Under the pieces are notes generated by a model. The model was given only the letters and a program-made list of their open reading frames with translations, had not been told where the DNA came from and searched no databases. From Anolis carolinensis (lineage: Eukaryota): DNA of 64,000 nucleotides. Below, in pieces: positions 12,545 to 58,104 of the stretch; the first letter of the stretch is position 1; each line of letters opens with the position of its first letter. The DNA is taken from assembly GCF_035594765.1 (NCBI RefSeq), contig NC_085843.1:217473971-217537970 (forward strand). Direction: 5' to 3'. A program made the position numbers and the translations under genes.

Positions 12545-14894
12545 GGCGATCCCTCATCGTTCGAGGATGATAGTCTTCCAACCTTGGTATCTTGGGTGTG
12601 TGTTCTTACGTGGCTGAAGAGACCGATTCTTGACCCGCATATTCTCCCACAGTGAGGACATCGGTTTCCAGGTGGAAGGTGGTCCCGGTCGGGGTTAGCT
12701 TGACGCTCCTTCCTCTTGGCACGTTTCTCCCTTAAGCCCTCCGTTCGTGCCTCTTCAAACTCCGCAGCACTGCTGGTTACAGCTGACCTCCAGTTAGAGC
12801 GCTCAAGGGCCAGGGCTTCCCAGTTCTCAGTGTCTATGACACAGTTTTTAAGGTTGGCTTTGAGCCCATCTTTAAATCTCTTTTCCTGCCCACCAACATT
12901 CCGTTTCCCATTCTTGAGTTCGGAGTAGAGGAGCTGCTTTGGGAGACGGTGATCGGGCATTCGGACAACGTGGCCAGTCCAGCGGAGTTGATGGCGTAGG
13001 AGCATCGCTTCAATGCTGGTGGTCTTTGCTTCCTCAAGCACGCTGACATTTGTCCGCCTGTCTTCCCAAGAGATTTGCAGGATTTTCCTGAGGCAACGCT
13101 GATGGAAACGCTCCAGGAGTTTGGTGTGACGTCTGTAGACAGTCCAGGTTTCGCAGGCGTAGAGCAGGGTTGGGAGGACAATGGCTTTATAAACAAGCAC
13201 CTTGGTATCTCTACGGATGTCCCGGTCATCAAACACTCTCTGCTTCATACGGAAAAATGCTGCACTCGCAGAGCTCAGGCGGTGTTGTATTTCAGTGTTG
13301 ATGTTGACTTTTGTGGAGAGGTGGCTGCCAAGGTAGCGGAAATGGTCAACATTTTCTAATATTACACCGTTAAGCTGTATTCCTGGCTTTGCAGAGGGAT
13401 TAGCTGGTGTCTGTTGGAAGAGCACTTTGGTATTCTCGATGTTCAGTGAGAGGCCGAGCTTCTCGTATGCTTCTGCGAAGGTGTTTAGAGTGGCTTGTAG
13501 GTCTTCTTCTGAATGCACACAGACTACATTGTCATCAGCATATTGGAGTTCTATAACAGATGTTGTGGTGACCTTGGTTTTGGCTCTCAGTCTGCTGAGG
13601 TTAAATAGCTTGCAATCTGTCCGCTAGATGATTTCCACTCCGGTGGGAAGCTTCCCATCAACAAGGTGAAGTATCATAGCGATCAAGATGGAAAATAAGG
13701 TGGGGGCAATAACACATCCCTGCTTGACACCTGATTCCACCTTAAATGGGTCACTTTGGAAGCCGTTGCTGTCCAAGACTGTTGCCATCATGTCATCATG
13801 GAGGAGCCGCAGGATGTTCACAAATTTGTCAGGGCACCCGATTTTTTGGAGGATGGTCCAGAGGGCGCTGCGATTCACTGTGTCGAATGCCTTTGCAAGG
13901 TCAATGAATGCCATGTACAGAGGTTGGTTTTGTTCCCTGCATTTTTCTTGGAGCTGTCGAGCAGTGAAGATCATGTCCACTGTTCCTCTGGAGGGGCGGA
14001 AGCCATTCTGGGATTCTGGGAGGGTGTCTTCTGAGACAGGGAGAAGGCGGTTTGCAAGGATTCTTGCAAGGATTTTCCCGGCGGAGGTTAGAAGGGAGAT
14101 ACCACAATAGTTCCCGCAGTCTGTTCTGTCCCCTTTCTTAAAAAGGGTGATGATGGTGGCATCCTTGAAGTCTGCTGGGATTTTCTCGGTCATCCACACC
14201 TTTTCAATGAGCTGGTGGAGTTGTTGTATCAGCTCAGGTCCACCCTCTTTGAAGATTTCAGCAGGAATCCCATCAGGTCTGCTGGCTTTGTTGTTTTTTT
14301 GTTGGCTGATGGCATTGCTGACTTCTTCCAAACTAGGCAGTGCTGCAAGCTCATCCCTGGTTTGTTGTTGCGGGATTTGTGAGAGGGTCTCTTCGGCCAC
14401 ATTGGAGCTGCGATTCCAACATAGTGCAATTGATGTTTTGTCCTTCAGAATTTTGGTTCCATCTGATGAGCGTAGGGGCTGTATGCCATGGTTTCTTGGT
14501 CCATAAATGATCTTTGTGGCTTTGAAAAATCCCTAAGCGTCATGGGTATCTGCAAGGTGTTGGATTTCTTCAGCCTTCTTTGTCCACCAGATGTTCTTGA
14601 GTTCTCTGGTCCTTCTTTGGACCTCAGCTTTTGCACTGGCATAGATCTTTTTCTTGGTAGCACAGTTGGTGTCTCTCTGCCATGTTTGGAAGGCTTTCCT
14701 TTTGTTATCAATCAGCTGTTGGATCTCTTTGTCGTTATCATCAAACCAGTCTTGATGTTTCTTAGTTAGGTATCCAATGCTTTCTTCGCAGGCTGTGATG
14801 ATGGAGGTCTTCAGTTTGTTCCAATGTTCCTCAACATTTTCGGGGTGTTCTGTGGGTAGATGATCTTTGAGTGTTGTTTGGAGAAGGGCTCGTT
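12505..14894 (-). mobile_element. RTE-1 LINE, 5'-truncated, disrupted ORF
   Basis: RT motifs (AFIDLAKAFDTVNR, SGVKQGCVIAPTLF, YADD), C-terminal CPHC...H...H finger, (TAAG)n tail. In-frame stop at 13624. TSD TG(A/G)AAAATTGTA at 12493 and 14895. Inserted into a MIR-like SINE. Confidence 0.95.
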
Positions 14895-15419
14895 TGGAAA
14901 ATTGTAACTTGCCCAAGATCACCCAATGGGTAGTCATGGCTGAATGGAGAGTCAGAGATGATCTTATAGTCCTCTGCTCAAACGACTACATCACACTGTA
15001 TCTTAAAATCAGGATAGAAAGTTATTTATCAGTTCATGCCTATGAATGCTTTTCTTTTAAAAAGATGTTTTGAAAGACATTATTTTTGTAAGACAGAGTA
15101 ATGGATCTTATGAACTGTATTTTCAAATATTATTCATGTGGCCCAGGGCCAGCTCTGTCATTTAGTGGAGCAAGTCAGTCACCTTGGATGTCAAATTTCA
15201 GAAGTCATGAAATGGCAGAGGTTTTTTGCAGAATTTCTTGTTTTAAATGTCAAAAATCAAACAGACAAATACCAAAAACAGCCTACCATGTTGATTGGGG
15301 GGTTCTGGGACTTGTAGTACAAAAATAACTTTGCAAAGTTTTTGCTAATCCACCCATGGTTTGGACCTATTCCAACACAGCAAAGGACACTCAACACTTT
15401 GGGATGGGTGCATATACAC

Positions 15420-33862: not shown

Positions 33863-34187
33863 ATATAATCCAATTCAAAACAGATAATCTGGATTTATAT
33901 GGCAGTGTAGAAGGGCCCCCAGTGAAACCTCATGCATTGAATATTGAATGTGGCACTGAATACTGCCAATGTGGAAGCCACTCTGAGTCCACTTAGAGGT
34001 TGAGATAGGTACAAGTCAGGTCTAGTCGTGTCTGACTCTTGGGGTTGGTGCTCATCTCCATTTCTAAGCCAAAGAGCCGGCGTTGTCCGCAGATGCCTCC
34101 AAGGTCATGTGGCTGCCATGACTGCATGGAGCGCTGTTACCTTCCTGCCGAAGCGGCACCTATTGTTGATCTACTCATATTTTGCAT

Positions 34188-34395
34188 GGTGTTGTTGTAT
34201 GTTTTCCGGACTGTATGGCCATGTTCCAAAAGTATTCTCTCCTGACTTTTCGCCCACATACCTCATAACCTCTGAGGATGCCTGCCATAGATGTGGGCGA
34301 AACGTCAGGAGAGAATACTTCTGGAACATTGCCATACAGCCTGGAAAACATACAACAACCCTGTGATCTTGGCTATGAAAGCTTTCGACAACACA
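34188..34395 (+). mobile_element. Fold-back mini-Penelope insertion inside a Sauria SINE
   Basis: 34191-34258 is the reverse complement of about 34291-34358. 3' tail ...GAAAGCTTTCGACAACAC. Host sequence ATTTTGCATG is duplicated on both sides. Confidence 0.8.
34269..34309 (+). ncRNA. Minimal hammerhead ribozyme motif in Penelope terminal repeat
   Basis: CCU-CUGAGGA-U-GCCUGC(CAUAGAU)GUGGGC-GAAA-CG-UC-AGG. All conserved core nucleotides present, with stem II, stem I (CCU/AGG) and palindromic ACGU in place of stem III. Predicted cleavage after C34306. Confidence 0.75.
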
Positions 34396-34597
34396 CATTT
34401 TGCATGTTTTCGAACTGCTAGGTTGGCGGAAACTGGAGCTAACAGCAGGAGCTCACCCTGCTCTCCAGATTCGGACCGCCAATCTTTCGGTCAGCAAGTT
34501 CCGCAGTTCAGCGGTTTAACCCCCTGCGCCACAGAGGGTTTTAGCGGGGATAAGATAGAGCGGGGTAAATGCAATCCAAGAAAGAAAGAAAAAACAG

Positions 34598-34705
34598 AGT
34601 TGTTGTATGTCTTTCGGGCTGTGTGGCCATGTTCCAGAAGTATTCTCTCCTGACGTTTTGCCCACATCTATGGCAGGCATCCTCAGAGGTTGTGAGGTAT
34701 GGAAA
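34598..34705 (-). mobile_element. Penelope terminal-repeat fragment (hammerhead GAAA mutated to AAAA)
   Basis: Reverse complement of the 34259-34360 unit. Confidence 0.8.
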
Positions 34706-34799
34706 AAACAATCCAAGCACTCCTAGCAGAGGCACATCTAGCCTCTGCTTCGAAACTCCACCAAAGCAACCCCTCTCCCCAGGTTTTGGAATAAACAGC

Positions 34800-35500
34800 C
34801 CCGCGCTTTTGCAGAGGCAAGGACCTTTGCAAGCAACAGAACCCGGGAAGGCTCGCGCTGCCTTCCGCGCGCGCCCCATCCTTCTGATAAGAGACGAAAC
34901 CACCGAAGTTCTTTGGGGTTGTGGTCCTTAGAAGTGGGCGGGGCTTGGCCGAAGGGGGCTGACCAATGGCGTACTGAGGAGCGCTGGAAGCGCCACGTGC
35001 AATGGAAAGTCTCCCCCCTCTCTCTCGTTCACTCCCGAGGGAGGGAGGGAGGGGAGAGGGGCAGCTCACTCTGGCAGCCCCCCTCCCTCTCCTTCGCTGG
35101 CCCGCCCGGCTGTCACTCAAGCTGGGGACCTCCCCTCCGTCGCCTCCCCTCAGCTGGCACCAAGCTCCGCGTTTCATTTGCCCATTCGCTTTGCATGGAG
35201 GAGGAGGAGGGGACGCGTCCCGGGCGGCGGCGGAGGCTGAGGGGCCAGCTGGGGACCCGGCTCTCCTGCCGCTGACAGGACGAAGGAAGGGAAGCAAGAA
35301 AGCGCCCCTCGCTTGCCAAATGGATTACCCGCCCCTCTATGTGATGCTCTCCTGCTTGGTCCCTCTCCACTGGTGGCTGGCCCAAGGCAGAGGAGCCCGA
35401 GCCCAAGGTAGGCAGAAGGCGCGCGCTGAAAGAGTGGCTGGACTTTCCTGAGGAGAGGGAATGCGACGCAGGGCTGTCCGAAAGGCCGGGGAGAAGAAGC
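34800..35500 (+). promoter_or_regulatory. CpG-island-type ADAMTS14 promoter/5'UTR
   Basis: The main GC/CpG-rich unique stretch of the window. GC box GGGCGGGG at 34936, CCAAT at 34963, E-box CACGTG at 34994. No TATA box evident. Surrounds exon 1. Confidence 0.75.
35320..35407 (+). CDS. ADAMTS14: ADAMTS14 coding exon 1 (signal peptide MDYPPLYVMLSCLVPLHWWLAQGRGARAQ)
   Basis: ATG at 35320 in a CpG-rich region. Hydrophobic leader resembles human ADAMTS14 'LLSYLLPLH'. Donor G|GTAGGC at 35408 (phase 1) joins exon 2 in frame (G+AG=Glu). Confidence 0.88.
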
Positions 35501-35553: not shown

Positions 35554-35747
35554 CAGGCATGGGCCAACTTGGGCCCTCCAGGTGTTTTGGACTTCAACTC
35601 CCACCATTCCTAACAACCTCAGGCCCCTTCCTTTTCCTCCTCAGCCGCTTAAGCGGCTGAGGGGGAAAAGGAAAGGGCCTGAGGGTGTTAGGAATGGTGG
35701 GAGTTGAAGTCCAAAACACCTGGAGGGCCCAAGTTGGCCCATGCCTG
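35554..35747. mobile_element. Palindromic hAT MITE in ADAMTS14 intron 1
   Basis: Near-perfect 194-bp palindrome centred on GCTTAAGC; perfect TSD ATATACAT. Confidence 0.93.
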
Positions 35748-35774
35748 ATATACATCTTGATACACATATTGAAT

Positions 35775-36695
35775 CCCTGCAGTTTTGACACCCCTCGAGT
35801 TGCCACTGCCCAGTGCTATGGGACCCTGGGAGTTGTAGTTTGACAAGGTCTTCAAACTTCCCTGCCAAAGAATTCTGTTGCCTCACTAAAGTAGAACTCA
35901 CAGGATTTTATGGAATTAATGCCATTTGATGCCACCCAAACGGTCATGGCTCAACACTGTGGGACACTGGGAGTTATAGTTTGACAAAGACTTCAGCTTT
36001 CTCTGACCAAGAGTGCTGGTGCTTCTCCAAAGTAGAACTCCCAGGATTTCATGGGCATATCTATAGAGTGAATGCAGTTTGGCACCACTCAAACTGCCAC
36101 TGCTCAATGCTATGGGATCCTGGGAGTTGTAGTTTGACAAAGACTTCAGCTTTCTCTGACCAAGAGTGCTCGTGCTTCTCCAAAGTAGAACTCCCAGGAT
36201 TTCATGGGCATAGCTATAGAGTGAATGCATTGCTCAGTGCTAGGGAACCCTGGGAGTTATAGTTTGACAAGGTCTTCAGCTTTCTCTGCCTAAGAGTGCT
36301 GGTGTCTCACCAAAGGATTTCATGGGCACATCCTCTGAATGAAAGCCATTTCACACCACCCAAATCACCCATGGCTCTATGCTATAGCATCCTGGGAGTT
36401 GTAATTTGACAAGGTCTTCAGCTCTCCCTGCCAGAGGGTGCTGGTGCCTCACCAAAGTATAACTCCCAGGATTTTATGGAACGGATGCCATTTGACACCA
36501 CCCAAATGGCCATGGGCTCAGTGCTATGGGATCCTGGGAGCTGTAGTTTGATGATGTGCTAGCACTCTTTGGCAGAGAAAGCTAAAGACCCTAAGAAACT
36601 AGTACGCTTTGGCAGAGAAGGCATAGACCCATGATTTCATAGCATTGAGAGGCGGGAGTTCAAGTGGTGCCAAACTACATAACTTCTATAGCGTA
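35775..36695. repeat. Tandem array of about six ~140-bp MITE-derived units
   Basis: GGGAG(T/C)T(G/A)TA(G/A)TTTGA recurs at 35828, 35969, 36122, 36252, 36394 and 36536. Confidence 0.88.
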
Positions 36696-51229: not shown

Positions 51230-51450
51230 GGGCTGGTGTGAGTTTTCCAGGCTGTATGACCATGTTTCAGTAGCATTCTCTCCTGATTTGCCTGCATCTG
51301 TGACCGGCATCTTCAGAGATTTGTTCTGAAGATGCCTGCCACAGATGCAGGTGAAATGAAAGGAGATAATAGTATTGAAACATGGCCATACAGACTGAAA
51401 ACTCACAGCAACCCGATGATTGTGGACATGAAGGCCTTCAGCAACACATT
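51230..51450 (+). mobile_element. Fold-back mini-Penelope (older copy)
   Basis: Inverted arms 51230-51317 and 51325-51414, each with a decayed hammerhead, plus tail ...CATGAAGGCCTTCAGCAACACATT. A-rich flanks resemble a TSD. Confidence 0.75.
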
Positions 51451-55229: not shown

Positions 55230-55267
55230 TATAAACCTTCCTTGCTGAGTTCCTCCATACCTCACAA

Positions 55268-55308
55268 CCTCTGAGGATGCCTGCCATAGATGTGGGTGAA
55301 ACGTCAGG
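55268..55308 (+). ncRNA. Minimal hammerhead ribozyme motif (Penelope), intron 2 sense strand
   Basis: CCT CTGAGGA T GCCTGC CATAGAT GTGGGT GAAA CGTC AGG. Core intact; closing pair of stem II is G-U. Confidence 0.65.
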
Positions 55309-55365
55309 AGAGACTACTTCTAGAACATGGCCATACAGCCCAGAAATCATACAACAACCCTGTGA

Positions 55366-55471
55366 TTTATATTGTATTGTTTTGGGCATGGCCCCATGTA
55401 AGCCGCCCCGAGTCCCCGTTGGGGAGATGGTGGCGGGGTATAAATAAAGTTTTATTATTATTATTATTATT
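55366..55471 (+). mobile_element. Very short L2 3' insertion inside the Penelope tail
   Basis: Nearly identical to the reverse complement of 25940-26040; TGAT duplicated at both ends. Confidence 0.85.
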
Positions 55472-58104
55472 ATGATCCCGGCCATGAAAGTCTTCGACAA
55501 CACATTGATACTCTCACTGTAAATGAAAAGCATACACCAATAATGATTCTATTTGCAGTGAAATGGGAAAGTACTCTGATTAGAGAGAGGAGGTTGCAGT
55601 TGATTTTCCTGTGGCCTTTACAAACAAACTGCTTAATGCACATTATGACCTCATCAGTCTGCAAACTGCTTAATGCACATTATGTCCTCATCATACGGGG
55701 CTAAATTCAGCAGCAAATGCTGATCTAGCCTCGGTCCCCCACGGAGCCAGATGGCTCCCATCAAACGATATCGTGCCGGCTCCGTGGGTGCAGAGGGGTG
55801 GAACCGGCATGCCACTGCCTCCCTGGCAACATAGGAGGCTTCCCGTGTTGCCCAATCTATGGGGGGAAGCTGCACACACCACATGTGCTCCATGTTTCTC
55901 CCCCCCCCCCATGTGATTGCCCTACTGGCAAGATGGGTAATGCGAGGCGTAGGGCCCCAGGTTCCCCACGCCTTGCAACATAGCGGACTGCTGCCTCCTT
56001 CTGCTGCTAGTTGTCTGATTAGGTGGTTAAGCAGCTCCCAGTATGTGTTGCATGATTTTTCTATGCCAAATCCTATGTCTTCTAGTATTGGGTTGAAATA
56101 GGATTTTGATTTTCACTTACACTTTGAGGCAAAAGACATTATTCTATTGAAACATTGTGAGTGTGCATCTATGTTGAACTTGTGTAATTTTAAATGGATG
56201 TTTTTATAATGGATGTTTTAATTATCTGTTTTAACTGTGATTGTTTTATAGCTTTTGTATTTTTGGCATGTAATGACTGCCGGTTGTGAGACCGTGCTGA
56301 GCCCCCCTTTGGGGGGTGAGATGGACATGATACAAATGTATGAAATAAATAATAAATAAATATGTTTGAAGGAGGATAGAAATATTTCCATATTTTGTGG
56401 CCATGTCAACGCTTCTTCAGAAGTTGATGAAAATAGTAAAAAAGACTAAATCAGGTAGAGATCAGATATGTGATTTTAAAATCTCATCACATTTGCAGTG
56501 TGACACTTGATTAGTTTATTCTGCCATTCATAGGAAGGAGATAATCCAGTAAAAAGAAATTATAATTTTGCTTCAGTACCAAAGAGATTGCAAATTGAAT
56601 GTAGGTGATGGAGAATGGGGAAAATTTCCATCAAATGGAACAGTTGCTGCAAACTGTTGAAAGACCATTCATTGGACATCCTAGCAATCCCCAAGTTACG
56701 AACAAGTTAGGTTCTGTAGGTTTATTCTTAAGTTGAATTTGTTTGTAAATCAAAACAGGTACATTTCTTAAGTGTAACTCCAGCCAATTTTTAAAGCTTT
56801 GGATAGGGAAGGATTAACACCCATGTAGTGTCCAGAAGATTTCACCTCACTTTCTATCCCTGTGATAATTGAATTTTGAAAAGTGACTTGTTGTGGAAAC
56901 ATAGATTGGTGATAAAGCTTAAGTGGTAACACATTTTCCCCTTGATAACTTTTACAGGAATGAATTTCCTTTCCGAGGGGTAGATTTCACTCACTTCCTG
57001 TTGTCTAACTCACATTCTTAACTAGGAGTCATTTGTAACTGCCTATATTTAGTATGTGCTGGTTCAAGGTTTGCTAGACAGAAAGAACTCAGTTACTTGG
57101 GAAAGTGTAGGAATGAATATGTCTTTGCCTATTAAATGTGTTGTTGGATAATGAAAGAGCCTAATGTAAAAGTGGCCTCTACAATTTGATGGAAAACTAA
57201 CTGTGTACTTCTGTTGGTTACTTCTGCTCCACCCTTCCTCTAGCAGTTACCCATAAAAAAAACTGTTCCAAAGGTCTGGAAAACCCTTTGGAATGGGTTT
57301 TTGGCACCACAAAGAGCTGCTTCTACAGGAAAGGGAGAGGAAGAAAACCCCATTTCTGATGCAATTGGATTATGAATTACACTATTGGATCGGGTCTTGG
57401 CCTTTAAGTTATTCAATATTTTAAAAAATGTGAGCAAGAGAATTTGGCTTTGTTTTTTTCTGGCAATAGTTTGGAAGCAAGCTCTCCCTTTTCGTGTTTG
57501 GCTAGGCTTTCTGTTTATTTATTTGTATTGCTACGTCTGTGTTTGGCCCCATCACAATGTTTTGATGGTACCCTTCTTCCTGATTGATCTTTTCTTATGG
57601 GGAAAAAACCCTGGCTACCTGTCTGAGTGTGTATTCTTATTTAACTGCAAAGGTAAATATATAAAAATACCTCCTACAATTTTTTAATACTGCCATTGAT
57701 AATATTTTTCTCCATTTCCATGAACTTGTGTTGTTGTGGACTAGTTAATATGGAGTTGTGGGGATCAAGATTTTTCCAGACATGGCATGACTTCTATAAA
57801 CCCATAAGGCAGTTTCTGGCAAGTTGCTATCTCTGAACCACAGCCTCGCCATGTACAATATACAATAAAATCCTATGTGCATGCTGTGTCTATGGGAGTG
57901 GGCAAGGTACATGTCTATCTGGTCTGTGGTTGTGTTGGAGATCATGAAAGACTTTATGGTGCTACAAGATCCATTGTAGTCCTAGGACTGCACTATTTCA
58001 GAATACAGATGCTGGTGTCAGTGTTTGTGTGTTTCTCTACATCAAAAATTCCCTGGATTTGGAAAACTATGCTAGAAACTTGATTTGAGATAACTATGCT
58101 AGAG

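Follow-up and report, generated by a model that had tools for sequence, protein, structure and literature searches.

The hammerhead motif upstream of ADAMTS14 in Anolis carolinensis lies in a short fold-back insertion of the Penelope-like element Poseidon_Ac

The locus and the hammerhead motif

The DNA analysed, referred to here as the window, was a stretch of 64,000 nucleotides of the Anolis carolinensis genome (NC_085843.1, positions 217,473,971 to 217,537,970). A hammerhead motif of 41 nucleotides was located on the plus strand at 34269..34309, and protein matches identified the first coding exon of ADAMTS14 (35320..35406, plus strand), a neighbour that lies outside the element described below. 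The first-pass annotation had put about 1 kb between the motif and the ADAMTS14 start codon further downstream, and the distance to the ATG at 35320 was indeed 1011 bp. This ATG matched residues 1-29 of the A. sagrei ADAMTS14 protein at 100%, and exon 2 shared 99% identity with the ADAMTS14 entry of Anolis carolinensis. That UniRef entry begins at the second Met (35344) and those of other lizards at the Met matching 35320; the Anolis carolinensis entry may be 8 residues short. The CpG content climbed from about 34600, with a GC box at 34936 and a CCAAT box at 34963, which likely puts the start of the ADAMTS14 transcript beyond the motif; the motif itself is probably upstream of the promoter.

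Several other features were seen in the window. In a GA-rich stretch upstream of the ADAMTS14 ATG, at 35036, the contigs of 3/4 runs had 4 extra bases, which may be a polymorphism or an assembly difference. The first intron contained a long near-perfect inverted repeat (35565-35755) with sub-threshold microRNA matches that is probably a miniature transposon. Tandem repeats with units of 153, 142 and 75 bp occupied 35949-36551 and 43390-43802, and broken LINE-type reverse transcriptase frames (RVT_1) were found on the minus strand at 12538-14985.

The letters at 34269..34309 were those of the motif as first annotated and every part of it could be mapped onto the hammerhead numbering. The 5' strand of a 3-bp stem I (34269-71) was followed by C3-A9 of the catalytic core (34272-78), an extra U between positions 9 and 10.1 (34279), stem II (34280-85 paired with 34293-98; six pairs, two of them G-U), loop II (34286-92), G12-A15.1 of the catalytic core (34299-302), C15.2-G16.2 (34303-04), U16.1 of the core (34305), C17, the residue 5' of the predicted cut (34306), and the 3' strand of stem I (34307-09). 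The G10.1-C11.1 pair of the hammerhead corresponded to G34280-C34298, and the extra nucleotide to U34279. The core, C3U4G5A6N7G8A9, G12A13A14A15.1, U16.1 and H17, was complete, with all 12 core nucleotides intact. The stem III remnant was the self-complementary 4 nt at 34302-34305, which include C15.2-G16.2, and there was no loop III. In the isolated 41-mer, stem II was predicted with a probability of 0.996.

A loose pattern for the hammerhead core matched the window 20 times, compared with 5.6 matches expected. The strict descriptor search proposed in the first-pass annotation, which combined the core with a stem II of at least 4 pairs, a palindromic insert and a 3-bp stem I, matched the window twice and none of 200 dinucleotide shuffles. 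The second match (55268-55308) carried C11.1U. The motif at 34269..34309 had been called the best-preserved copy, and it was the only unchanged one among 7 near-complete copies in the window; the others had G12A, C11.1U or further changes. The 68 Rfam matches with E up to 10 included no hammerhead family, as expected for a motif that lacks stem III, and the Rfam microRNA matches at 34223-34327 were below the gathering score and reflect only a hairpin.

Poseidon_Ac and the window insertion

The motif is already known and has been tested in vitro as the hammerhead of an anole Penelope-like retrotransposon, Poseidon_Ac (PAc). The earlier assignment to the minimal type I hammerheads that Penelope-like elements carry was borne out, since the core is complete and identical to the PAc motif: the 41-mer was the same, by script, as that of a full-length locus, L184, and, compared by eye, equalled the RNA template printed in the available text of PMC11167929. 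An 846-aa ORF starts at the hammerhead ATG in four full-length loci (L183-L186). The L184 ORF contained a reverse transcriptase domain (RVT_1; Pfam, E 3.5e-13) and a GVY...YIG motif. The GIY-YIG endonuclease was recognised as a motif only; Pfam gave no match for a GIY-YIG domain in the PAc ORF, nor did it assign the endonuclease fragment at another locus, L032, to any family.

The ATG shared with L183-L186 is present in the window copy at 34278..34280 (plus strand), where it is made up of A9, the extra U and G10.1. That the extra U of the hammerhead is the U of the PAc start codon had been overlooked. The first 39 ORF residues of the window copy and full-length PAc were identical at 30/39 positions. 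According to the available text of PMC11167929, the PAc ORF begins at stem II and the hammerhead is cut 26 bp after the start codon, so that 34278-80 and 34306 match the PAc start codon and cut. The predicted cleavage site after C17 (34306..34307, plus strand), 26 nt past the start codon, agrees with the position given for PAc and with the first-pass annotation.

At least 14 of the 150 listed matches sit in open frames no shorter than 860 aa, and some PAc frames (L183-L186 and others) are in tandem, 2.66 kb apart, with endonuclease parts that are 98-99% identical. The long open frames and the 98-99% identity of tandem copies make the family look recently active. Two loci contained head-to-tail arrays of pLTR fragments with a hammerhead in each unit, L032 (3385-3928; a 220-bp unit present three times) and L033 (4310-4935; a 173-bp unit present four times). 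These arrays are natural multimer substrates and are retrozyme-like.

The copy in the window is a 5'-truncated PAc fragment (34257..34395, plus strand; 139 nt compared with L184) that runs from -21 to +118 of the ORF and consists of the pLTR end and the tail. It was identical to L184 at 128/139 nt. The 11 differences were all outside the motif; 4 were shared with an older subfamily and common among sampled copies, and 7 were private. Upstream of the motif was an inverted arm of the same insertion that had also been overlooked (34191..34259, minus strand; 69 nt, +14 to +82, 93% complementary to 34291-34359), in which the 5' half of the core is missing and C15.2A is present. The forward and inverted arms differed at 5/69 positions, which suggests that the insertion is not recent. 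The copy is not autonomous, as the full pLTR-ORF-pLTR is absent and homology ends at +118. Template activity of PAc is described in the accessible part of PMC11167929 as requiring the first 172 ORF nt, a proposed protein-binding region; the window copy, without +119 to +172, stops short of it.

The insertion was flanked by a target-site duplication, the left copy at 34179..34188 (plus strand; 10 bp exact, or as long as 13 bp if one mismatch is allowed) and the right copy at 34397..34406 (plus strand). The right copy begins with ATT, the motif favoured at the target by the PAc endonuclease in the available text of PMC11167929. The insertion splits an older dispersed SINE-like repeat into a left part (34020..34188, plus strand; 81-88% matches to 5 other window places) and a right part (34398..34532, plus strand; 79-84% matches to 5 other window places), and uninterrupted copies of the repeat hold the duplicated stretch once. 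This host repeat is presumably the Sauria SINE. A consensus by which to name it was not found in the part of PMC13295347 that was available.

A second, separate PAc fragment, identified by sequence comparison on the minus strand at 34594..34701, has a hammerhead with G12A. Within the ADAMTS14 introns there were plus-strand copies at 40614, 51325 and 55256, one of them with a complete core. Another fold-back pair lies in an intron at 51230-51448 and belongs to an older lineage (N7 = A and an altered loop II), and the copy at 55256-55504, with a complete core and C11.1U, is broken by about 105 bp of another repeat, its tail resuming at 55473.

The shape of the insertion was compared with an evenly spaced sample of the genome (136 stretches of 10 kb from contigs C1-C6, 1.36 Mb in total), which gave 96 matches. 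The 3' ends of 32/96 fell at +82 to +85 and those of 38/96 at +114 to +118, the query itself also ending at +118. The arm ends at +82 and +118 fit these two clusters. A head-to-head partner within 60 nt accompanied 16/96 matches. In the accessible text of PMC3846280 and PMC8557442, an inverted pLTR, a one-sided tail and a target duplication are known features of Penelope-like elements. The window copy may have arisen from nicking of an ATT site by the PAc endonuclease, with reverse transcription starting at two internal sites, which would leave arms ending near +82 and +118.

Decay of the copies and prospects for cleavage

The genome contained 12,566 exact copies of the 41-mer, i.e. one per 147 kb, and 27,991 copies with no more than one mismatch. 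Of the sampled copies, 72 spanned the motif; 5 of these were exact, 40 kept the 12 core bases and 18 kept the core and the key pairs; the core was damaged in 32/72. The CpGs at C11.1-G12 and C15.2-G16.2 had decayed in 19-40% of copies per site, like the flanking CpGs. When decay was compared with that of the flanks, leaving aside 4 nt at either end of every match and 17 sites that looked diagnostic of subfamilies on visual inspection, 45 core changes were observed and 62 expected (ratio 0.73, P 0.014), with a ratio of 0.74 for non-CpG core changes (P 0.056); in the stems there were 167 changes compared with 143 expected. Stem changes in the 72 copies were mostly one-sided or CpG decay, with no clean compensatory pair changes.

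A genome-wide comparison of single-position variants, based on 15,184 unchanged 35-mers, found 546 changed only at G5/G8 and 625 changed only at N7 or the loop G. At 0.87 the ratio is below 1 (P 0.023), and the catalytic bases decay nearly as fast as tolerated ones, close to neutrality. The modest deficit of core changes and the departure of this ratio from 1 count against an inert relic, and the nearly neutral decay of G5 and G8 genome-wide counts in favour of one. In an older lineage (6/76 copies), N7, loop II and two wobble pairs were altered, one pair becoming G-C and the other an A-A mismatch. Because these positions change together, selection within the source lineages, combined with sequence context, would account for the small deficit, although weak selection on inserted copies may contribute. 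Ribozyme selection would then act in active source elements, where the hammerhead likely processes a tandem precursor RNA, and not in inserted fragments.

The window copy had 0/7 of its private changes within the 41-mer and both CpGs were intact. The chance of no private motif change was P 0.056, uncorrected for picking the best of 7 copies. The motif most likely stayed unchanged here by chance, and low methylation beside the CpG-rich promoter perhaps helped.

The biochemistry of PAc, as far as it is given in the accessible text of PMC11167929, limits what the window copy can be expected to do. The RNA tested for cleavage spanned -126/+235 and was cut in vitro only when PAc protein was added; without protein it was uncut at 500 nM RNA and 5 mM Mg2+. 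C3G and G8C each abolished cleavage and the double change gave partial rescue, while cleavage persisted with endonuclease mutants. Insertion in vitro was unaffected by hammerhead mutants, so that cleavage was dispensable, and the RNA-seq described there had no reads starting or ending at the cut site.

Folding predictions point the same way, although the energies leave aside tertiary contacts and protein. In the isolated 41-mer, CUGA was predicted to pair with UCAG (probability 0.99), and the fold was no better than that of shuffled sequences (z -1.55; 15/200 shuffles as stable). The region that includes the inverted arm was predicted to form a hairpin of -123.3 kcal/mol (z -16.4). In this context the probability of stem II fell to about 1e-8, and a structure constrained to contain stems I and II, its core left unpaired, was 34.5 kcal/mol uphill. 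As the inverted arm is 5' of the motif, it would be made first in a plus-strand read-through RNA and would form a 69-bp hairpin that hides G12-C17. The arm is thus predicted to sequester the 3' half of the motif and the cleavage site, and cleavage here would be blocked. The energy gap alone is no proof of inactivity, because a forced double hammerhead in the natural tandem array L033 also has a gap of 22.9 kcal/mol.

The first-pass annotation had suggested that the copy self-cleaves after C34306 when paired with a second copy, as a double hammerhead joined through the 4-nt palindrome. The core and palindrome are intact, thousands of identical copies elsewhere in the genome make a partner in trans possible, and dimers and trimers of Schistosoma minimal hammerheads cut weakly where the monomer did not (PMC4209133, available text). 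Nevertheless, several observations make this improbable, 1) two 41-mers as a double hammerhead were predicted at -15.5 kcal/mol, whereas the best dimer fold reached -31.6 and a pair of monomers -27.4, 2) the CUGA/UCAG pairing within the monomer and, far more so, the arm hairpin are stable competitors, the latter predicted to hide the 3' half, 3) there was no full same-strand copy within 33900-35000, the next plus-strand copy, at 40614, being damaged and the copy at 34594-34701 antisense with G12A, and 4) the PAc motif needs protein in the accessible text of PMC11167929, and the window copy stops at +118.

Slightly less probable still is that PAc protein, when expressed, licenses cutting of thousands of such fragments within host transcripts, in trans or after refolding, with the window copy cutting read-through RNA upstream of ADAMTS14 under the control of the transposon.

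We consider co-option of the copy at the ADAMTS14 promoter, with selection keeping it intact, less probable again; in such a role it would cut or terminate RNA reading through from upstream, or serve as a DNA element. The copy lies about 600 bp upstream of the GC box and CCAAT box, at the edge of the CpG-rich region, and its motif has no private change. However, that lack is not significant and the motif is likely upstream of the transcript start. Antisense transcription from the promoter would copy the opposite strand, on which the sense-oriented hammerhead has G12A, and at a density of one exact copy per 147 kb many would be near promoters by chance. A literature search for ADAMTS14 and ribozyme returned nothing beyond an unrelated general review of circular RNAs. 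An importance of the position near ADAMTS14 was not supported; this is an ordinary copy among 12,566, and probably upstream of the promoter. The idea that part of a repeat resembles a hammerhead by chance, to which the Rfam result, the shuffle-like folding of the 41-mer and the lack of clean compensatory changes in 72 sampled copies might point, has a negligible probability, given 0 descriptor matches in 200 shuffles, and is refuted by the cleavage of the identical motif and its response to C3G, G8C and the double change (PMC11167929, available text).

Identity to full-length elements, an inverted arm, a target duplication, a split host repeat and thousands of copies alike are all present. The preferred reading, to which we assign a probability of about 0.9, is a short 5'-truncated fold-back PAc insertion with the known hammerhead and start codon, likely an inert relic and predicted not to cleave. 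The family, motif, cut site and fold-back insertion shape are already published and the locus itself matters little. The in vivo role of Penelope hammerheads is called unclear in the accessible part of PMC8557442, and more than 12,000 perfect copies with near-neutral decay of catalytic bases provide a baseline for it. The natural head-to-tail arrays L032 and L033 are better test substrates than the window copy.

Comparison with known systems

The host-domesticated intronic hammerheads of amniotes are single copy, have a stable stem III and are conserved at the orthologous site. The 12,566 identical copies and the missing stem III rule out this class. Animal non-LTR retrozymes, in the available text of bioRxiv 10.64898/2026.07.22.740005, are likewise non-autonomous, hammerhead-bearing and Penelope-derived. 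They are head-to-tail tandem units, whereas the window copy is solitary and head-to-head with a partial inverse of itself, and assignment to this class was rejected.

The minimal type I hammerheads (min-HHR) of metazoan Penelope-like elements were described by Cervera and de la Pena (2014; PMC4209133, available text). Compared with the Schistosoma min-HHR, in which stems I and II have 4-5 and 7-8 bp, those of the window motif are shorter, with 3 and 6 bp, respectively. Inverted-pLTR insertions, as presented in the accessible text of PMC3846280 and PMC8557442, share with the window copy a 5' head-to-head inverted copy, a tail of 30-40 bp on one arm and a target duplication of about 10 bp. The window copy has no ORF body between the repeats and is a minimal version of this arrangement.

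The closest relative is PAc itself. The window copy belongs to an older subfamily and is cut down to 139 bp; it departs from the active element at 11 positions, all outside the motif, most of the pLTR and everything past +118 are missing, and an inverted arm is directly upstream. It nevertheless has the same 41-nt motif, the same ORF start at stem II and the same cut position as PAc in the available text of Frangieh et al. (2024; PMC11167929), and here, as there, the insertion ends at internal reverse-transcription start sites and has an ATT target.
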